From Escherichia phage vB_EcoM_SQ17, in sequence record MW882907: a stretch of DNA of 64,000 nt. One strand, given 5' to 3'. The notes beneath the pieces were generated by a model. The model saw only the letters and a program-made list of their open reading frames with translations, did not search any database and had not been told where the DNA came from. Positions 2,413 to 34,590 of the stretch are shown one piece after another. Made by a program: the position numbers and the translations under genes. The number at the start of each line of letters is the position of its first letter. The first letter of the stretch is position 1.

Positions 2413-2673
2413 TTAAGCTTTACCGCCAGAAATAATTCCGAAGTTGTTAAAATCGTATCCAATATCGTCAACATCTACTTTAGGGCTTGCTACAACATAA
2501 GCAATTTCACTACGTTTTGCATAGGTGTTGATTTCTTTACCATCGCCACCTAAGAAAAAATACCCATTACGTTTTAATGAGCCAAAGTCTTCCGCATCAC
2601 CAATGAAAGCTTTAACTTTAAATTTAGGACCTTTGGCATCTGCTTCAATGATAAATTCTTGATACATTTTCAT
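2413..2673 (-). CDS. internal protein (IP)-like
   Basis: N-terminus MKMYQEFIIEA leader. Confidence 0.55.
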   Translation of the reverse strand: MKMYQEFIIEADAKGPKFKVKAFIGDAEDFGSLKRNGYFFLGGDGKEINTYAKRSEIAYVVASPKVDVDDIGYDFNNFGIISGGKA

Positions 2674-2679
2674 TTTTCC

Positions 2680-3093
2680 TTAGTAAATTGATTTACCATA
2701 GTATTTGTACCAAGTAGGACGTTGAGCAATTTTTTCGTCTAAACGTGCTTGACTTATCGCAATGGACGCTTCGGACGGGACATAATTATTACGAAATTCG
2801 GCAGGGATGTCGGAAATATCCTGGACAGTCGTGTCCTTGATTTTGAAACCACGTTTCAAACATTCAGCGATTAGCTCGATTTGTCGTAAACGTAAAAATT
2901 CGAGTTTGTCGTAAAAGAATGTTACGTGACCTGTGCCTAAGATAAATGTTGGAGAGATTTTAAAATCCTTTACACGTTTACCGTTTTGAACATGTTTACG
3001 GACTGCACCAAATACGCGTGGTAATTCACGATACTCAGCCATAAGATGTTGGTCGGTCAGTTCAGAAACAAGTGTTAAATTGATACGAGTCAT
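2680..3093 (-). CDS. denV: endonuclease V, pyrimidine dimer DNA glycosylase
   Basis: [12 protein letters not shown]...[12 protein letters not shown]...[19 protein letters not shown] near-identical to T4 DenV from memory; internal Met start. Confidence 0.9.
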
Positions 3094-3151
3094 AAGTTCC
3101 TCCAAGTAGTTGATGAATGTATAGTATCAAAACCCTTGGAGGAAGTAAACA

Positions 3152-3433
3152 CTATTTTTCTGAAGCGCCTGAAATATATTTTTCAAGACGTTGTTTCATC
3201 AGCGAGCCGTTCTTAGCGATTTCTTCCGGTTTATCACACATACGCAACAAGGCTTCAAGCTTAACGATATCGCTGGTACGTTCAAATTTGCGAGTATCTA
3301 TCTTACTAGCAAGTTCAGAAATACGTGCTAATAGACTTTCGGCTTCAACCAAAGCTGCACCTAGCTTAGTTGCAAAGGTGTCAGTAGCTTCGTTAAGAAT
3401 AGATTCTGATAAAAATTCACTATATGTTTTCAT
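3152..3433 (-). CDS. internal protein (IP)-like
   Basis: Internal Met start gives [10 protein letters not shown] leader; sits between denV and e where T4 has ipII/ipIII. Confidence 0.55.
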
Positions 3434-15756: not shown

Positions 15757-16272
15757 ATGGCACAAATACTTCCTTTAAATACCGACTTAGGAGAAGACAT
15801 GGAAGGGGCGTCTATTGACGTCCTTTTTACTCCACAGTTAGAAACAACCGAAACTTTAGTGTCAATAAATATAACAGATTATGAACCGACACAAGGCATT
15901 ACGGTAGATGGTAATCGTTTATATGGAACATATGAAAGTGTGTTTAGCTTTTCTTCGGATGCATTGAAATACCGATTAAATGATGATTTTGAAACCGCAT
16001 CTTCATGGGATGATTTACCAAAAGATGAATCCACACAGTTATATTTGTGGAGAGCTCCTCAGAATCTTCGTAAAGTGTTTAGTTATACGGTTGAAATGAT
16101 TTATAACTACCAAGAAGAAAGTTCATCAGGCGGTTCTAGAAGTGACTCTGCTACAGAACCTCCACCGGCTCCAGTACAAAAAACTCTTACTAAGGTTTAT
16201 ACAAAAACTATAGTAGGAAATTGGAGCAAATGGGCTCAACAATTACGAAACTATGTTTATGCGAGGCCATAA
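15757..16272 (+). CDS. 5.1: gp5.1
   Basis: 171-aa ORF following gene 5, synteny. Confidence 0.7.
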
Positions 16273-16274
16273 AA

Positions 16275-16568
16275 ATGTCTGGATTAAGTTACGACCAGTG
16301 CGTTACAACAGGTCATGAAGCATGGCCTCCTACAGTAATTAATGCTTCTCAATCTAAAGTATTCACCGGCGGTATTCCTGTTCTTGTAGCAGGAGACCAA
16401 ATAACACCTCATACAGAAATTAAAAAACCGTACGAGACTCATGGTGGTGTTACTGAACCTCGTACATCTAAAGTATATGTCACCGGTAAAAAGGCCGTTC
16501 AAATGGCTGACCCAATTTCATGCGGGGATACTGTTTCTCAGGCCTCGTCAAAAGTCTTTATAAAATAG
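16275..16568 (+). CDS. 5.4: PAAR-repeat spike tip protein gp5.4
   Basis: Internal Met start gives 97 aa as T4 gp5.4; track ORF start lies in gene 5.1. Confidence 0.75.
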
Positions 16569-22668: not shown

Positions 22669-22676
22669 TATAAATA
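22669..22676 (+). promoter_or_regulatory. late promoter TATAAATA (gene 9)
   Basis: exact TATAAATA ~25 nt upstream of gp9 start. Confidence 0.65.
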
Positions 22677-22701
22677 GTATAAACTATTAAGGATTAGCCA
22701 C

Positions 22702-23565
22702 ATGTATATTCAAACTCCAAAACAATTGATTGACGTTGGCGAAATTGGTAACGCTTCTACAGGCGATATCCTTTTTGACGGCGGTGTTAAAATAAACAAT
22801 GATATAAATGCTATTTACAATGCGTTTGGTGACCAACGAAAAATGGCAACTGCTAATGGGACAGGACCAAATGGACAAATAATCCATGCCACTGGATACT
22901 ACCAAAAAGGAGGCCCTACTGATTATTTCACCCCTGTTCCAGTAGGAAGTAGACATGACATAGATGCTTCTACCGGTGGTGTTATTGTTACTGTTGCTAG
23001 AGGTGAACTCGGCGATTCCGTGGAATTTATAAATTCAAACGGGTCAATTTCTGTAAACAACCCATTAAGTATCCAAGCATTAGATTCTATTAAAGGTGTT
23101 GCAGGTAATTTAGTTATAACTACACCTTATACTAAAGTTACTCTTCGTTGTATTTCTTCTGGTGCAGGCGGTTCAATATGGGATTATTCTACAGAAAGTA
23201 TGTTTAGTCATACCGAAATTCCTGTAGACGGGACATGGAATATTATTTCAGACTATGTCAATATTCCTCTATTTTATAAAACTGAATATAATGCTGCTAA
23301 ACTTTTGGTTACATGCCAATCTGCCAACGGCCGAAAAATTAAATCATGCGAAATAAATATTCTAATAGATACAATTAATTCAAGAGTTATTTCAACTGAA
23401 TACGCAGTGATGCGCGTTGGTAATGATAACGAAGAAGATGAAATTGCGAATATTAGTTTTTCGATAATTAACAATTTTGCCACTATGACAGTTTCTTCAC
23501 ATATAAATGGTCTTCGAGTGGCAGCTAAAGTTATTTCAACTCAGAAAATTAGGGTCGCTCAATAA
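22702..23565 (+). CDS. 9: baseplate wedge/long tail fiber socket gp9
   Basis: 287 aa, MYIQTPKQLIDVGEIGNASTGDILFDGG..., synteny. Confidence 0.9.
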   Translation: MYIQTPKQLIDVGEIGNASTGDILFDGGVKINNDINAIYNAFGDQRKMATANGTGPNGQIIHATGYYQKGGPTDYFTPVPVGSRHDIDASTGGVIVTVARGELGDSVEFINSNGSISVNNPLSIQALDSIKGVAGNLVITTPYTKVTLRCISSGAGGSIWDYSTESMFSHTEIPVDGTWNIISDYVNIPLFYKTEYNAAKLLVTCQSANGRKIKSCEINILIDTINSRVISTEYAVMRVGNDNEEDEIANISFSIINNFATMTVSSHINGLRVAAKVISTQKIRVAQ

Positions 23566-25379
23566 TGAAACAAAATATTAAAATTGGGAACGTCGTTGAT
23601 GACGGACAAGGCGATTACCTTCGTCGTGGTGGTGCAAAAATTAATGAAAACTTTGATGAGTTGTATTATGAATTAGGCGATGGCGAAGTTCCGTATTCCG
23701 CTGGTGCCTGGAAAACATACCATTCTTCAGATGGACTTAATTTAGCCGCTGAATGGGGTAAATCATACGCAATTGATACTTCAACAGGGCGTGTTTCTAT
23801 AAATTTACCTAAAGGAACAGTGGAAGATTATAATAAAGTAATTAGAGCCCGTGATGTATTCGCCACATGGAATATTAACCCTGTAACATTAATTGCCGCC
23901 AGTGGTGATACTATTAAAGGTTCTTCTAGCCCAGTAGAAATCAATGTGCAGTTTTCAGACTTAGAATTAGTTTACTGTTCTCCTGGGCGCTGGGAATACG
24001 TTAAAAATAAACAAATAGACAAAATTACTAGTTCTGATATTAGTAGTGTAGCTCGTAAAGAATTTTTAGTCGAAGTTCAAGGTCAAACTGATTTTCTTGA
24101 TGTATTTGGGTCTGTTTCTTATAATGTGAATAATATCCGTGTAAAACATCGTGGTAACGAATTATACTATGGTGATGAGTTCAGTGACAATAGTGACTTT
24201 GGTTCTCCAGGAGCTAATCCTGGAGAAATCGTTGCATTAGACGGTAAAAACATCCGTTTAAGACAACCATGTAATATTGGCGACACCGTACAAATTGAAA
24301 CCTTTTTGGATGGGATTACACAATTACGCAGTTCTTATTCTCGCCGCCAAATACGTATTTTAGATTCGAAATTAACAACCCGTCCTTCCTTAGAAGGAAG
24401 TGTATATGTCGCTGATTTGTCAACTTTGAAATCTATTCCTTTTTCGGCATTTGGAGTTAATCCTTCAGAACCGGTCAATACTAATTCTTTAGAAGTTCGT
24501 TTTAATGGTATTCTTCAAGAATTAGCTGGTACTGTTGGTTTACCTATGTTCAGATGTGAAGGTGCTGATGCGGAAACTTCTACCGAGTGTTCAGCTTTAG
24601 GTGGGACTTGGGTTACATCTAACACCGATTATTCTATTGAATATGATGATAACGATGCAACTATTGCACGTGCTTTAGTCTTTGACCGTAAGTTTGAAGA
24701 CCAAGACATTATTGATATTACATGGTTTAATAACGATTTAGGCACTTTATTAAGTATCGATGACATTTTAGATACAACTGATGAAAAGTATGTCGCACAA
24801 GGTGCAACCGTAAATGTGACCGGCGATGTGGCTTTGACCGATTTCAATAATATCGGATGGCCTAATGTAGAATCTGTTCCGGCATATAGCAGGGAATTCT
24901 CATCTATTGCAAATATTTTTAACACTATTTACCCTGTCGGTACTATTTACGAAAATGCAGTGAACCCTAATAACCCAGCCACGTATTTAGGATTTGGTTC
25001 TTGGAAATTATGGGGACAAGGAAAAGTATTAGTTGGATGGAACGACGATATTAGCGATCCTAATTTTGCATTAAATAATAACGACCTTGATTCTAGCGGG
25101 AATCCTACACATACCGCCGGTGGAACAGTCGGAACAACGTCTAACACACTAACTAATTCTGATTTACCTCCTACTCAAACTGACGAGAAAGTTCTTATTT
25201 CCGATGAGAACGGTACAATTATTATTGGTGGCTGTCAATACGACCCTGATGCAGAAGGTCCTATATACACCAAATACCGTGAAGGCCACGCCACAACGAA
25301 TAGTACACACATACCGCCTCAAGCCGTAAATAATATTCAACCGTCAATTACCGTATACCGTTGGGTAAGGATTGCATAA
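23565..25379 (+). CDS. 10: baseplate wedge/short fiber attachment gp10
   Basis: 604 aa, synteny. Confidence 0.9.
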
Positions 25380-26038
25380 TGACCATACTTAATACTAAAG
25401 CGGGAGTAATATCCCGCGAAGCAGATTTTTTAGGATTTAGAAAAAATCCTACTCAAATTGATATTTTAAACAACCAAGGCGTAGGTTCTGTAACCATTTC
25501 TCAATTGGCAAAAGGATTCTACGATGATAACGTAGAATCTGCAATAAACGATGTTCATAATATTGCTAGAGCAGATGTAGGAACAGTTACAATTAACACC
25601 TCAGGTGTATCTCCTGAAGGAACTTCACAGGTAGATTATTGGTCCTTTAGTGGAAGTGTAGCCGACCCTAGTTTGCCCGATGGAAGCCCTGTTATTGTAA
25701 AAGTTTACGGGCTTCCTGTTAATGCTACTGTAGGTATGACAGCCGACGAATTTGTTGTACAATTACGTACTACTCTCCGGAATGCGATTTCCGACCAATT
25801 GGCTATTGCAGAGTATAAAGATGACCCTACTGTTGGGACTAAATTACAAATAACATATTTAGATAACCAAAGACACGTACTCCCCACGTATTCCGCTTAT
25901 GGTATCACGGTTTCTCAAGAAATAGTGTCCCAGGCTAAGTCCGGGTACGGCACTTGGAATTTACTAGGTGCGCAAACCCTTACTCTTGACAACCATAATT
26001 CACCTACAACCTTTTATTATTTTGTGAGAACCGCATGA
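25379..26038 (+). CDS. 11: baseplate wedge protein gp11
   Basis: Internal Met start (TAATG overlap with gene 10) gives 219 aa as T4 gp11. Confidence 0.9.
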
Positions 26039-27591
26039 GTAACAATACATATCAACACGTTTCGAACGAATCTGTATATGTTGAATTTGACCCTACCGGG
26101 TCAAATTTTGATAGTTCAATAACCAATGTCCAGGCAGCCTTAGCCTCAATTAGCGCATATGGTGTTAAAGGTGTTCCGGAAGCAAGCGAAGCAGAAAAAG
26201 GTGTAATTCAATTAGCGTCAGAACAAGAAGTTCTTGATGGATTTAATAGTACTAAAGCCGTTACACCAGCAACATTAAATGCAAGACTTCAGTATCCGAA
26301 CGCGTCAGAAACACAGTACGGCGTAACTAAATATGCAACACAAGAGGAGGCCATTGCTGGCACTTTAGACACTGTTTCTATTACTCCGCTTAAATTAAAC
26401 CAAACTATTGATAACACTTTCTCTACTCGGTATTCAACAGAAACAACTAACGGTGTTATTAAAATTGCAACTCAAACCGCGGCACTTGCTGGATCTGATG
26501 ACACCACAGCAATGACTCCGCTTAAAACGCAACAATTAGCAATAAAATTAATTTCTCAAATAGCTCCTAATAACGACCCGGCTTCAGAATCTATTACCGG
26601 TGTTGTGCGTTTAGCTACGGTGGCTCAAACACGTCAAGGAACTCTTCGCGAAGGATATGCAATTTCCCCGTATACCTTTATGAATTCTGTTGCAACACAA
26701 GAATATAAAGGTGTTATACGTCTAGGAACACAAGCGGAAATTAATAGCAATTTGGGAGATGTTGCTGTAACAGGTGAAACGCTAAATGGTAGAGGAGCTA
26801 CCGGTTCTATGCGTGGAGTCGTAAAATTAACGACGCAGGCTGGTATTGCCCCTGAAGGCGATAGCTCTGGAGCATTAGCATGGAACGCAGATGTAATTAA
26901 TACACGCGGTGGGCAAACTATTAATGGTTCTTTAAATTTAGATCACCTCACAGCAAATGGAATTTGGTCGCGTGGCGGAATGTGGAAAAACGGTGACCAG
27001 CCAGTTGCAACAGAGAGATATGCATCTGAACGTGTTCCTGTTGGAACAATTCAAATGTTCGCAGGTGATAGCGCTCCTCCAGGTTGGGTTTTATGTCATG
27101 GTGGGACCATTTCTGGAGACCAATTTCCGGACTATCGAAATGTGGTCGGAACAAGATTTGGCGGTGATTGGAATAATCCTGGTATTCCTGATATGCGAGG
27201 TCTTTTTGTTAGAGGAGCTGGCACAGGCAGTCATATTTTAAATCAACGCGGACAAGATGGTTATGGGAAGGATAGACTTGGTGTAGGATGTGACGGAATG
27301 CATGTTGGCGGTGTTCAGGCACAACAAATGTCATACCATAAACATGCTGGTGCCTGGGGGGAAAATGGAAATAGCAGAGGTTATGCACCGTTTGGAGCAT
27401 CTAATGGCAATGGATATTTAGGCAATGGTAAAAGCGCCGACTGGGACAACCATTTGTTCTTTACTAACGACGGATTTGAAATGGGTGGTGCTCGTGACTC
27501 GTTTGGCACGTTAAACCGTGAAGGATTAATTGGTTATGAAACTAGACCATGGAATATATCATTAAATTATATTATTAAAGTCCATTACTAA
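26035..27591 (+). CDS. 12: short tail fiber gp12
   Basis: 518 aa with repeated ...TKAVTP.T/TPLKL motifs, synteny. Confidence 0.9.
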
Positions 27592-27600
27592 GGGTAAAAA

Positions 27601-29043
27601 ATGATCGAATTAAAAAGTCTACCATATGTTGATGGCCCTCCTGATGAGGGTCAAAAACGTTTAAACTGGATTAAAAATTCAGAAGAAATAACTGGCGCTG
27701 ATACGTTATACGGTTCTGAAGGAGTAATGAACCGTCCAATAACAGAAGTTCAACGAAATGTAGAAACAATTAACGATAACGTTAAGACTATCGCAGAATC
27801 TTTAGATACCGCTAATGCTGATATTGTCACAATTAAAAGTATCTTGGATGTTTCTGGTGACGTAGATGCTTTAGCACAAATTGGACATAACACCGATGAT
27901 ATTGAAGTATTAAAACACACCGTAAATTCACACGGTGTTGATATTTTAAACACTGAAGAAAAACTAGATGATACTATTGCTAATATCGGAGTAGTTAATC
28001 CAGAAACAGATTCGGTGTATCGTACGGTGCGTAACGACCTTCTTTGGATTAAAACCGAATTAGGGCAATATACTGGACAAGATATTAATGGTGTCCCTAC
28101 CGAAGGTAATGAAAGCACCGGGATGAAACGACGTATTATTACTAACAGTTCAGTGTTGGTTGACCAAGGCGTTCGTTTAACCGAGTTAGAAAATAAATTT
28201 GCCGATTCTGATGTTGGGGCTCTGACAACCGAAGTTGAAAACCTCCGTCAAGAAATAGGTCCTAGACCATCGTTAACAGTACCGGTTTACACTCTTTTAT
28301 CTGGTATTGATTCATCCATTTCTATCCAAACCAGAGATATTGCGGCATTAAAAGATTTTGTTGGATATCCTAATTCAACCGCTATTAAAACTCAAGTCGA
28401 GGCCAATCGTCTTTCTATATCAACAATAAATTCAGACATTAACTCGCCTGGTGGTATTAAACCACGTTTGACAACGTTAGAAACTACTATAGGCTCTCCG
28501 GATTTACCGACTACTCTTCAGGGTAAGATCAAATTAAATACCGATTCTATTTCAGGTATTAACACAGTTTTAGGTGTTGATTCTTCTAGCGGTTTACGTT
28601 TTAACGTAGCATGGCTTAATCAGGTGGTTGGCGTCGATTCAAATGGTGGACAACCTGAACCGGCTGGTTCACTTTTATATAGGACTCGTATTCTTGAAAC
28701 TGATGTTACTGACCTAGGCAATAACATTCAAAACGTTCAAACCGAATTGGGAACTAATTCGTCCGGTATTAAAGGACAAGTGACTAGTTTAAATAAACTT
28801 ATAAGCGGAACCAACCCAAACGGTCAAACCGTAGAAGAACGTGGTATATTGCCAACAGTTAAAAACCATGATACGACAATTAATGGTTTAACTTCTATAA
28901 TTGCTACTCTTGAAACTGATTTGGCCGCTGCAGAAGCAGAAATTCAGGCCCTTAAAGAGGCTGGATATATCGAAGATGCTCCTTCAGACGGTAAATTCTA
29001 TGTTCGTAAAGACGGTGCATGGGTTGAACTTCCTACAGCTTAA
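27601..29043 (+). CDS. wac: fibritin (whisker)
   Basis: 480 aa, segmented coiled coil, C-terminal foldon-like GYIEDAPSDGKFYVRKDGAWVELP. Confidence 0.9.
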   Translation: MIELKSLPYVDGPPDEGQKRLNWIKNSEEITGADTLYGSEGVMNRPITEVQRNVETINDNVKTIAESLDTANADIVTIKSILDVSGDVDALAQIGHNTDDIEVLKHTVNSHGVDILNTEEKLDDTIANIGVVNPETDSVYRTVRNDLLWIKTELGQYTGQDINGVPTEGNESTGMKRRIITNSSVLVDQGVRLTELENKFADSDVGALTTEVENLRQEIGPRPSLTVPVYTLLSGIDSSISIQTRDIAALKDFVGYPNSTAIKTQVEANRLSISTINSDINSPGGIKPRLTTLETTIGSPDLPTTLQGKIKLNTDSISGINTVLGVDSSSGLRFNVAWLNQVVGVDSNGGQPEPAGSLLYRTRILETDVTDLGNNIQNVQTELGTNSSGIKGQVTSLNKLISGTNPNGQTVEERGILPTVKNHDTTINGLTSIIATLETDLAAAEAEIQALKEAGYIEDAPSDGKFYVRKDGAWVELPTA

Positions 29044-29049
29044 TGAAAA

Positions 29050-29063
29050 GGGCCTTCGGGCCC
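29050..29063 (+). terminator. hairpin GGGCC-TTCG-GGCCC
   Basis: GC stem/UUCG loop immediately after wac stop. Confidence 0.5.
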
Positions 29064-29075
29064 TAAAGGATTTAT

Positions 29076-30002
29076 ATGTCAGGTTATAATGCACAAAACC
29101 CTAAAGAATTAAAGGACGTAATATTACGTCGTTTAGGCGCTCCTATTGTAAATGTTGAATTAACTACAGATCAAATTTATGATTGTATTTCACGAGCGTT
29201 AGAACTTTATGGCGAATACCATTTTGACGGGTTGAATAAAGGTTTCCATGTATTTTTTGTTGATGATGAAGAAAAATACCGTCACGGCGTATTTGATATG
29301 CGCGGTTCTAACGTATTTGCCGTAACAAGAATTATAAGAACAAACGTTGGCTCTATTACTTCAATGGACGGTAATGCAACTTATCCTTGGTTCACTGATT
29401 TCCTTTTAGGAATGGCAGGTGTTTCTGGTGGCATGGGTAGTAATTGTGGTAAATTCTACGGACCGAACGCTTTTGGCGCTGACCTTGGGTATTATTCTCA
29501 ATTAGTATCTTATATGGGTATGCTTCAAGATATGATTGCTCCTCTTCCAGATTTTTGGTTTAACTCTGCAAACGAGCAATTAAAAGTAATGGGTAACTTT
29601 AGACAGAAAGACGTCATTATCGTTGAATCGTATGTTCGCTCTTATATCGAGACCCATAAGATGGTAGGAAATACAGTAGGGTACGGCCAGGTCGGTCCTC
29701 GTGATTCATGGTCTATTTCTGAGCGGTATGACAACCCGGACCATAATTTGGTCGGACGTCGAGTTGGTGAAGATCCTGCAACTAAACAAGGCGCATATAA
29801 CAACCGCTGGGTTAAAGATTATGCAACTGCATTAGCTAAAGAGCTTAATGGGCAAATTCTTGCTAAACATCAAGGTATGATGTTACCAGGTGGCGTCACT
29901 GTTGATGGCGTTCGATTAATTGAGGAAGCTCGTTTAGAGAAAGAAGCTTTACGAGAAGAGTTATATTTACTGGACCCTCCTGCTGGTATTTTGGTAGGTT
30001 AA
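29076..30002 (+). CDS. 13: neck protein gp13
   Basis: 308 aa, synteny. Confidence 0.9.
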
Positions 30003-30003
30003 T

Positions 30004-30639
30004 ATGGCAACATACTACAGATTGTATATTACAACATTTGAAACATCCACCGGTATAAAGATTTATGGTGGTAAACACAAATCAGTTTACGAAGACCCTT
30101 CAAAAGACCCTTATACCGGGTCTGGTACCTTTATACGAAGGGCCAAAAGAAAATACGGTCCGTCTTGTATAAAAGAAATTATATGGTCTAAGCCATTTGA
30201 ATCTAAAGCTCTAATGGATGAAGCTGAAGAGTTACTGGTAGATGAATTATCCATTTTAGAAAATTGCGCAAATCTTGTTAAAGGTGGTGCAGGCGGAAGG
30301 TCGTATATTAACCCAGAAGATAATCCATCTATAGGACAAAAACGTTCAGCCCAATCTAAAAAGAAAATGTCTGACGCCGCAAAATCAAGAAAATGGACTG
30401 AAGAAGGGTTAAGAAAACGTAAAGAATCTACAGCAAGAATGTGGAAAGATTTCAAACATAGACATCCTGATTTTTCTGGTTCAAAAAATCCAGCAGCTCG
30501 AAAAGTTAGTGTAAATGGTAAAATATTTAACACCTGCAAAGAATGTGGTGAAGAATTTAATATCACATCAAGCGCGGTTATAGGCCGATGCAAAAACAAC
30601 AAACCTAAATGGGCAGGATGGAATTATGTCGACGTATAA
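30004..30639 (+). CDS. free-standing homing endonuclease, GIY-YIG/seg-like with I-TevI-type C-terminal DNA-binding domain
   Basis: N-term YRLY...GIKIYGG resembles GIY...YIG; C-terminal [36 protein letters not shown] parallels I-TevI VIFDCAADAARHFKISSGLVTYRVKSDKWNWFY; inserted between genes 13 and 14. Confidence 0.6.
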
Positions 30640-31390
30640 TTCAAATTTATTTGCAAAGTTAGAAAACCGAGAAGGCTATTCTAAAACTAATGAAACCGAG
30701 ATTTTAAACAAATACGTGAACTTCAACAAATACGAAAATAGTCAAACCCTAGCTGATGTGTTAGTAGCAGAAAGCATACAGATGCGCGGTATTGAATGTT
30801 TTTATGTTCCACGTGAATATGTTGCTGTGGACCTTATCTTTGGTGAGGACCTTAAAAATAAATTTACTAAAGCATGGAAATTTGCTGCATATCTGAACTC
30901 ATTTGAAGGTTATGAAGGAGCGAAATCGTTCTTCAGCAACTTCGGAATGCAAGTTCAAGACGAAGTTACATTATCTATTAACCCAGGTCTTTTCAAACAC
31001 CAGGTCAACAATCAGGAGCCCAAGGAAGGTGATTTAATATACTTCCCAATGGACAACAGTTTGTTTGAGATTAACTGGGTTGAACCATATGACCCATTCT
31101 ATCAAGTAGGTAAAAATGCGATTCGTAAAATTACTGCAGGCAAGTTTATTTACTCTGGTGAAGAAATCAATCCGGTGCTTCAGAAAAATGAAGGTATCAA
31201 TATACCTGAATTTAGTGACTTGGAACTTAACCCTGTTAGAAATCTTGACGGTATCCATGACATTAATATCGATGAATATTCTGAAGTTGAGCAAATCAAT
31301 TCAGAGGCAAGTGAATACGTTGAGCCGTATGTAGTAGTTAACAACCGTGGTAGACAAAATTCACCCTTTGATGACGGATTTATGAATTAA
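30626..31390 (+). CDS. 14: neck protein gp14
   Basis: 254 aa, [15 protein letters not shown]..., synteny. Confidence 0.85.
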
Positions 31391-31442
31391 TAAATAGATA
31401 AGATAAAGCAAACACCGGTCGAAAGGCCGGTTAGGAGAAATG

Positions 31443-32264
31443 ATGTTTGGTTATTTTTACAACTCGTCGTTCAGGCGATATATCACAATGATGGGCGATT
31501 TGTTTTCAAATATCCAAGTTAACCGTCAATTGTCTACAGGCAATAAATTAATTAGAGTTCCTATTACGTACGCATCTAAAGAGCACTTTATGATGAAACT
31601 TAATAAATGGACCTCTATAAACTCACAAGAAGATGTGGCTAAAGTCGAAACTATTCTACCACGTATAAATCTCCAAATGGTAGATTTCGTTTATAACCCA
31701 ACGTTTAAAACGAATATATTGAATAACTCTCTTTTGAGTAAATCGACTAAGGATATTGTAGACCAATACAACCCATCACCAATTAAAATGATTTTTGAAC
31801 TGAGCATCTTTACTCGTTATGAAGATGATATGTTCCAAATCGTTGAGCAAATTATTCCATATTTTCAGCCGCATTTTAATACGACTATGATTGAGCAATA
31901 TGGGCAGGATATTCCATTTGAAAGGGATATTAAAGTCGTATGGATGTCAGCAGCAATGGATGAACAAATAGACGGTGATAATTTATCCCGTCGACGTTTA
32001 GAGTGGTCATTAACATTTGAAGTAAATGGATGGATGTATCCTCCGGTAGGCGCAGCAGAAGGCCTTATTAAAACGACTTATCTTGATTTTCATGCTAATG
32101 AACGAGACCTTCAAACAGCCGCCAGCGTTTTTGAATCAGTTGATACAGAAATTAAACCGAGAGACGTTGAAGCCCAAGATTGGAATGGCGAAGTTGAACA
32201 AACTTATACTCATGATATTCCAATCCCGACTCCACCAACCCCTCCTGGTCCTAGAAAACAATAA
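31443..32264 (+). CDS. 15: tail sheath stabiliser/terminator gp15
   Basis: MFGYFYNSSFRRY... match to T4 gp15. Confidence 0.9.
   Translation: MFGYFYNSSFRRYITMMGDLFSNIQVNRQLSTGNKLIRVPITYASKEHFMMKLNKWTSINSQEDVAKVETILPRINLQMVDFVYNPTFKTNILNNSLLSKSTKDIVDQYNPSPIKMIFELSIFTRYEDDMFQIVEQIIPYFQPHFNTTMIEQYGQDIPFERDIKVVWMSAAMDEQIDGDNLSRRRLEWSLTFEVNGWMYPPVGAAEGLIKTTYLDFHANERDLQTAASVFESVDTEIKPRDVEAQDWNGEVEQTYTHDIPIPTPPTPPGPRKQ

Positions 32265-34590
<2,326 letters not shown>

Follow-up and report, generated by a model that had tools for sequence, protein, structure and literature searches.

A probable free-standing GIY-YIG homing endonuclease gene of the seg type at the junction of genes 13 and 14 in the Mosigvirus coliphage vB_EcoM_SQ17

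In the review of Edgell, Gibb and Belfort (PMC2988022), SegC of phage T4 figures among the free-standing GIY-YIG endonucleases that are active. Several T4 seg and mob genes are promoter-less cassettes lying in late gene strings (PMC2988022). The free-standing endonucleases of T4 that have been characterised mostly cut hundreds of bp away from where they are inserted; hundreds or thousands of bp are given for free-standing endonucleases in general, and SegF and SegG cut at a distance from their genes (PMC2988022). A review from 2010 described RB69, the type phage of genus Mosigvirus, as being without such endonuclease genes (PMC2993671), and in the full-text literature searched, an endonuclease at the junction of genes 13 and 14 was neither described nor tested in any paper. 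The DNA analysed here (a stretch of 64,000 nucleotides, hereafter the window) comes from an RB69-like coliphage of genus Mosigvirus, vB_EcoM_SQ17. Between its genes 13 and 14 lies an ORF that is, very probably, a free-standing GIY-YIG homing endonuclease gene of the seg type, provided with a captured start and a linked, putative immunity patch.

The SQ17 endonuclease belongs with the T4 Seg endonucleases, SegC being the closest paralogue, and GenBank already names identical or orthologous proteins 'homing endonuclease', 'GIY-YIG endonuclease' or 'segC'. It shares with SegC the order of domains (GIY-YIG with Y-x-GSG and KYG motifs, NUMOD3, C-terminal helix-turn-helix) and the residues H25-K26 after the 'YIG' motif; the segC gene, too, is a cassette without a promoter that lies among late structural genes and overlaps the adjacent ones (PMC2988022). 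Yet, segC is inserted between T4 genes 5.1 and 5.3 instead of 13 and 14, and since the insertion sites differ and identity amounts to only 33%, the SQ17 target is presumably unlike that of SegC. Unlike SegC, the SQ17 endonuclease takes the start codon of the downstream gene and replaces the 5' end of that gene. The activity of SegC was shown experimentally, whereas that of the SQ17 enzyme is predicted. The closest solved structure for both domains is that of I-TevI, from the td intron of T4 (PDB 1LN0 for the catalytic and 1I3J for the DNA-binding domain), which differs by being intron-encoded, by a zinc finger in its linker, by residue R27, to which no residue of the SQ17 endonuclease could be aligned, and, presumably, by its length (245 aa against 211 aa). 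The biology expected is that of SegF and SegG, which home without an intron and with localised marker exclusion: the insert-less allele of a relative infecting the same cell would be cut, the double-strand break repaired and flanking markers co-converted (PMC2988022).

The ORF and its surroundings are organised as follows.

27601..29043, + strand: wac (fibritin), upstream of gene 13
29076..30002, + strand: gene 13 (neck protein or head-tail adaptor), the left homology arm
29993..30015, + strand: original translation start of gene 14, consisting of GGTAGG, the gp13 stop TAA and ATG GCA ACx TAx (MATY)
30004..30639, + strand: endonuclease ORF with an ATG start, 211 aa, from the ORF call
30016..30637, + strand: insertion of 622 nt relative to insert-less relatives, with an imperfect 12-nt repeat of the gene 14 start at its ends (ATGGCAACATAC ... 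ATGTCGACGTAT)
30615..30628, + strand: replacement gene 14 start, read from the sequence (AGGA at 30615-30618, 7 nt, ATG at 30626)
30626..31390, + strand: gene 14 (neck protein or head closure), with its 5' end replaced and the right homology arm from about 30690

One nucleotide separated the gene 13 stop from the endonuclease ATG, and genes 15, 16 and 17 followed downstream of gene 14. The preliminary description, made from the sequence alone, had placed a 211-aa ORF at 30004-30639 between genes 13 and 14, with its stop overlapping the gene 14 start, and had stated that T4 has no gene there. The ORF call gave the same ORF; the overlap, read from the sequence, measured 14 nt; and genes 13 and 14 are adjacent in a T4 record, with nothing in between. 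The 13-to-14 segment was 98.0-98.6% identical to those of Escherichia phages F2, NicPhage, moskry, mogra, RPN187 and others. A 163-aa antisense ORF (30111..30602) was taken to be a side effect of the coding strand. The interval between genes 5 and 6 (15757..16568), where T4 has segC, held no segC-like gene, and no other relative or paralogue of the endonuclease occurred anywhere in the 64-kb window.

Two features of the upstream region were recorded in passing. The wac gene was only about 73% identical to that of phage F2 at the nucleotide level, while genes 13-17 of F2 were about 98-99% identical; its divergence from F2 stopped near 28850, and it was 96.5% identical to wac of phage ST2. The fibritin gene is a swapped allele that lies some 1.15 kb upstream of the endonuclease and is not demonstrably linked to it. 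In the 32 nt that separate wac from gene 13 there was a perfect GC-rich hairpin (AGGGCCTTCGGGCCCT, 29049..29064); a terminator scan flagged it as terminator-like on the minus strand, and it may serve the late transcript either in RNA stability or as a terminator.

The close relatives listed as insert-less were shorter by exactly 622 nt, and the comparison of the 13/14 junction that had been called for in the preliminary description showed that the ORF alone made up this difference. Their junction reads ...GGTAGGTTAAT ATG GCA ACT TAT GAT AAA AAT CTT..., gene 14 starting as MATYDKNL. In SQ17, the same upstream sequence is followed by ATG GCA ACA TAC and runs into the endonuclease (MATYYRLY...). 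Up to codon 4, this sequence equals that preceding gene 14 in T4 and in phages lacking the insert. Since both the upstream sequence and the four codons match, the endonuclease appears to use the original ribosome-binding site and start codon of gene 14. The latter gene now begins 622 nt beyond its old start with ATG TCG ACG TAT AAT TCA AAT TTA... (MSTYNSNL), preceded by the AGGA at 30615-30618, which presumably acts as its ribosome-binding site. The exact boundary of the insertion is ambiguous within the 12-nt repeat; owing to this repeat, the gap placement by MAFFT was misleading and the junctions were read by hand. This takeover of a start codon shows how such elements become hard to delete.

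At the protein level, the endonuclease matched PHROG 314 'homing endonuclease' over its full length (E 2.6e-37), and T4 SegC, which carries the same PHROG 314 tag in a T4 record, ranked first among its paralogues in T4 (33% identity, 198 aa aligned, E 5e-15). Among the tblastn matches were genes annotated segC, segD or SegB-like. Together with the motifs described below and a sporadic presence among relatives, these matches support the identification as a homing endonuclease put forward in the preliminary description. Three domains were delimited.

30004..30279, + strand: N-terminal GIY-YIG catalytic domain, aa 1-92, with Y8 (the 'GIY' Tyr), Y21-G22-G23 ('YIG'), E75 and N90
30316..30372, + strand: NUMOD3-like DNA-binding helix, aa 105-123, following a Gly-rich linker (PF07460, E 0.006, below the cut-off)
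30478..30615, + strand: C-terminal helix-turn-helix of the I-TevI DNA-binding type, aa 159-204 (PF20987, 1I3J, Foldseek, hhalign)

When submitted as a single sequence, the protein displayed no above-threshold domain in Pfam or NCBIfam. Scores below cut-off were obtained with I-TevI_DNA-bd (PF20987, 22.6 bits for a cut-off of 27), with NUMOD3 (PF07460, 16.9 bits for 20.4) and, over the C-terminal half, with NCBIfam TIGR01453 'group I intron endonuclease' (E 3.8e-6, 27 bits for 56). Neither PF01541 (GIY-YIG) nor PF19835 (SegE_GIY-YIG) matched it at E<=10, nor did they match any of its 11 closest relatives at E<=1, and a single-sequence search of the PDB returned noise and a weak match to 1I3J alone. 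The picture was clearer for a family alignment of 12 sequences, endonuclease included. At E<=1, I-TevI_DNA-bd was matched by 11 of the 12 members (best value 1.6e-10) and NUMOD3 by 11 of them as well, and the family profile matched 1I3J, the I-TevI DNA-binding domain, at 2.7e-5. A more distant family member, P0014, passed PF19835 with 30.4 bits (cut-off 25). Local hhalign of the family against a 245-aa sequence that we take to be that of I-TevI reached a probability of 94% from residue 68 to the C-terminus, with E75 on the catalytic Glu (E75) and N90 on the structural or metal-site Asn (N90).

The AlphaFold model (mean pLDDT 82.7, about 90 in the N-terminal domain) displayed a beta-beta-alpha-beta-alpha arrangement at residues 4-82, i.e. 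a three-stranded sheet flanked by helices, then a disordered Gly-rich linker (93-99, pLDDT <50), two long helices and a small C-terminal helix-turn-helix. The top Foldseek match was 1I3J with a probability of 1.00, the DNA-binding domain being the only part found. A profile search of 1.84 billion representatives yielded 7,100 relatives at E<=0.001, and the N-terminal motifs were surveyed in 99 representatives sharing at most 50% mutual identity, endonuclease included. Nine residues were invariant in all 99 N-terminal domains (Y8, Y21, G23, Y37, G39, G41, E75, N90 and G95), and K50 was nearly so. The GIY and YIG motifs, whose spacing in the superfamily is about 10-13 residues, take the form R6-L7-Y8 and I20-Y21-G22-G23; Y8, Y21 and G23 fell on Y6, Y17 and G19 of I-TevI in a global hhalign whose overall probability was only 49%. 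No Arg could be aligned with R27 of I-TevI; this region has a family-specific insertion (D35-x-Y37-x-G39-S40-G41). A damaged active site, as could be imagined from 'GGKHKS' in place of the 'GGKRHS' of the close family, was rejected: position 25 was His in 56 and Arg in 42 of the 99 sequences, SegC also has H-K, and His is therefore normal for the family at this position.

The endonuclease is thus composed of a GIY-YIG nuclease domain, a Gly-rich linker, a NUMOD3 helix and an I-TevI-type helix-turn-helix, which is the architecture of SegC; by analogy, it would be expected to cleave DNA and to home. The resemblance of the C-terminal segment to I-TevI noted in the preliminary description was borne out by the family-level Pfam matches, the 1I3J profile match and Foldseek. 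Its proposal of an N-terminal GIY-YIG region fared less uniformly. The profile search for GIY-YIG and NUMOD domains that it recommended found nothing for PF01541, so that, for this profile, the contrary outcome which it had named literally occurred, and NUMOD3 emerged below the cut-off in the single sequence but in 11 of 12 members at the family level. The missing PF01541 match is nevertheless outweighed by the structural match of the fold, E75/N90, homology to the experimentally active SegC and the SegE_GIY-YIG match within the family.

Distribution among close relatives was sporadic. The 13-14 segment was matched by 204 phage records, about 156 of which displayed at least 80% flank identity. 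The preliminary description had named presence at this position in all relatives as an outcome contrary to its reading, but the ORF was found in 12 of the ~156 records and was absent from about 92% of close relatives. The copies were at least 99.2% identical, and the 12 carrier records annotate them as endonuclease, homing endonuclease or GIY-YIG endonuclease. Carriage varied within a species, since moskry, a carrier, belongs to Mosigvirus mar005p1, of which a strain (mar005P1) was without the insert. Diversity and phylogeny were compared in 8 carrier and 6 non-carrier genomes. Among the 8 carriers, diversity was 0.55% for the endonuclease gene, 1.76% for gene 13 and 1.37% for the rest of gene 14; this roughly threefold lower value suggests recent spread rather than decay. 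Divergence of gene 13 between carriers and non-carriers (2.0%) was not above within-group values, and both kinds of genomes were interleaved in a neighbour-joining tree of the flanks, which is indicative only since the sequences recombine. Low endonuclease diversity and interleaving together point to horizontal movement within Mosigvirus. As a separate observation on one of these records, gp15 of NicPhage (OY726582, 5368..6316 of the locus) is annotated as two overlapping ORFs, which suggests a frameshift or a sequencing error in that record and leaves the window unaffected.

Carriers further distinguished themselves by the beginning of gene 14.

30626..30688, + strand: recoded gene 14 5' end, with about 17 substitutions in 63 nt (about 21 codons) relative to insert-less relatives

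The substitutions entailed 4 amino-acid changes. They were concentrated in the first 50 nt of the gene (15-16 mismatches, against 0-4 per 50 nt elsewhere), and the gene 13 side of the insert displayed no excess divergence from insert-less relatives. All 8 carrier genomes had the recoded haplotype, and all 6 non-carriers the canonical one, which is almost identical to that of T4. Over 8.3 kb (26075-34390, 7 carriers and 4 non-carriers), every fixed difference between the two groups lay at 30012-30673, apart from a single SNP at 33342; no other insert-linked polymorphism was seen within about ±4 kb. This SNP is located in gene 17 (large terminase) and its linkage is probably due to chance, because at most 4 non-carrier sequences were available.

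Being the sole clustered difference between carriers and non-carriers over 8.3 kb, the recoded block is a likely self-immunity site; it probably belongs to the element and would spare the carrier from cutting. Judging from this linkage, the target most probably falls within the initial ~50-60 nt of gene 14 in its canonical form (...TAATATGGCAACTTATGATAAAAATCTTTTCGCCAAGCTAGAAAATCGTGGTGGG...). Since free-standing T4 enzymes usually cut farther away, a target in the adjacent patch is deduced from linkage and does not follow a rule, and the target may yet be a more distant one. The block of insert-linked differences adjoins the insertion, which suggests a nearby target as in intron-encoded enzymes, in contrast to the distant targets of SegF and SegG. 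An import of the recoded patch from another genus by co-conversion was considered and rejected: it had a few codons in common with the Slopekvirus sequence, but the divergence of the endonucleases between genera equalled that of the flanks.

The same slot was occupied in other genera. With tblastn, 44 records were retrieved at E<1e-30, all 44 with full-length intact ORFs (coverage 91-100%), and for most of those with annotation, a neck-protein or head-closure gene is listed at the site matched; presumably they also take in Dhakavirus-like and RB49-like phages. Elements in Escherichia and Shigella phages (SP18 'segC', ADO19516; VR26, RZ, MX01 and phT4A), in Klebsiella phages (KpF2 and Kiwi_ER50) and in others lie in the same gp13/gp14 slot; these orthologues were 55-60% identical to the SQ17 endonuclease, displayed the W-N-Y overlap and were sporadic in each genus. 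Across other T4-like genera, endonucleases of the 13/14 junction were 48-63% identical. Mosigvirus (SQ17), Gaprivervirus (SP18) and Slopekvirus (Kiwi_ER50) were checked in detail and were alike in the 13/14 slot, in the takeover of the gene 14 start and in the stop/start overlap through W-N-Y, the gene 14 ATG sitting in these conserved C-terminal codons of the endonuclease. The element was sporadic in Gaprivervirus (9 records) and present in 16 of about 112 close records of Slopekvirus, where carriers and non-carriers again differed by a recoded patch, here of about 90 nt. Slopekvirus copies begin with MHYRLY instead of the MATYYRLY of SQ17 because gene 14 itself starts differently in this genus.

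Among these three genera, amino-acid identity was 48-59% for the endonuclease and 47-64% for gp13, gp14 and gp15. As the two ranges are comparable, each genus seems to hold its own long-resident lineage; the 13/14 orthologues differ from that of SQ17 in being separate lineages, one per genus, that diverged like the flanking genes. No sign of recent cross-genus transfer appeared in this three-genus comparison, and the divergence between genera would fit long vertical residence with losses as well as transfer.

The reading favoured here, a homing endonuclease gene with a captured start and an immunity patch, implies the following cycle. When a carrier and an insert-less relative infect the same cell, the endonuclease would bind and cut the unmodified 13/14 junction, and phage recombination would repair the break from the carrier genome. 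Copying from this template would bring in the 622-nt gene together with the recoded patch, and the patch would leave the carrier genome uncuttable. That the gene is intron-encoded, as some database labels have it, is almost inconceivable. Related or identical proteins are indeed labelled 'intron-associated endonuclease' or 'putative group I intron endonuclease', and the sub-threshold TIGR01453 match to the C-terminal half goes in the same direction. Yet, the ORF stands between complete genes, one nucleotide past the gp13 stop and overlapping the gp14 start; no Rfam family, group I introns included, was detected in 28800-31600 at E<=1; insert-less relatives are separated by the 622 nt of the ORF alone; and the conserved zinc-finger Cys pattern of the I-TevI linker is absent. 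The 'intron-associated' and 'group I intron' labels given to such proteins in GenBank are wrong, and the free-standing state asserted in the preliminary description held, complete gp13 and gp14 genes directly flanking the ORF. A search for a late promoter or a terminator of the ORF's own found none; the exact T4 late-promoter motif (TATAAATA) did not occur on the + strand from 22669 to 34583. Because there is neither an intron nor a late-promoter motif, the ORF is a promoter-less cassette in the late 13-14-15 string, and our results showed an endonuclease gene that has neither a promoter nor a ribosome-binding site of its own within the late wac-13-14-15 string.

Two further explanations were weighed. 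It is improbable that the ORF is an inactive or decaying remnant, intact in appearance and no longer cutting, which hitch-hikes since its removal takes away the start signals of gene 14. Gene 14 does depend on the ribosome-binding site, ATG and first codons that lie within the ORF, so that simple deletion would be lethal and a dead gene could persist; the lack of a general GIY-YIG Pfam match and of an alignable catalytic Arg could also be understood in this way. A remnant accords poorly, however, with intact ORFs in 44 of 44 records, with the invariance of Y8, Y21, G23, E75 and N90 across 99 diverse relatives, with the sharing of H25-K26 by SegC, an enzyme listed as active, and with an endonuclease diversity about three times under that of the flanks, which suggests recent spread. 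Slightly less probable still is an old resident, inherited vertically since before the T4-like genera split, repeatedly lost and kept for a benefit to its host phage, such as exclusion of competitors or tuning of gp14 translation through the stop/start overlap, rather than for its own spread. The matching divergence of endonuclease and gp13/14/15 in three genera, the conserved slot and overlap architecture, and the physical coupling of gene 14 translation to the last codons of the ORF are all in keeping with such a history. But each precise loss would have to restore the canonical 5' haplotype of gene 14 in every non-carrier, and 6 of 6 non-carriers match that of T4, as expected of genomes that the insert never entered or in which recombination restored the site; low endonuclease diversity and interleaving within the genus point instead to horizontal movement. 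Moreover, exclusion of competitors is the same cleavage seen from the side of the phage and is no alternative to homing (PMC2988022).

Taken as a homing endonuclease gene, the 13/14 element adds a well-delimited member with a predicted target to the T-even set, in the very genus of RB69, and leaves the current understanding of homing endonucleases unchanged. Since the predicted target is conserved, and nearly identical in T4, crosses between Mosigviruses, and possibly crosses with T4, could be subject to localised marker exclusion by the endonuclease. Both haplotypes of the pair (insert with recoded patch, and canonical site) are predicted to be ready resistant and cleavable substrates, respectively. 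More tentatively, the element may be one lineage of an endonuclease family that was kept at the first codons of gene 14 throughout the enterobacterial T4-like radiation, co-diverging with its hosts and polymorphic in each genus. It would have persisted by capturing the gene 14 start and by cutting adjacent to its insertion, unlike the characterised free-standing endonucleases of T4. If true, such a single-site family would represent a natural long-term homing cycle, traceable across genera.

The element also accounts for a length difference of 622 nt among phage records and brings to light that the start of gp14 is apparently mis-called in Shigella phage SP18 (GQ981382, 3129..3917 of the locus). 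The start annotated there, at locus position 3231, looks wrong; starting instead from the ATG at 3129, which overlaps with the stop of the endonuclease (TGGAATTATGCGTAA), yields MRNSYDASLFARLEDGTGY..., and this aligned with the gp14 N-termini of other phages. In Acinetobacter phage KARL-1, a 33%-identical relative of the endonuclease (2501..3151 of the locus) has a gene annotated 'head closure' on one side and one annotated 'DNA end protector' on the other, a case from which related endonucleases appear to occupy other conserved head-completion junctions in more distant T4-like phages.
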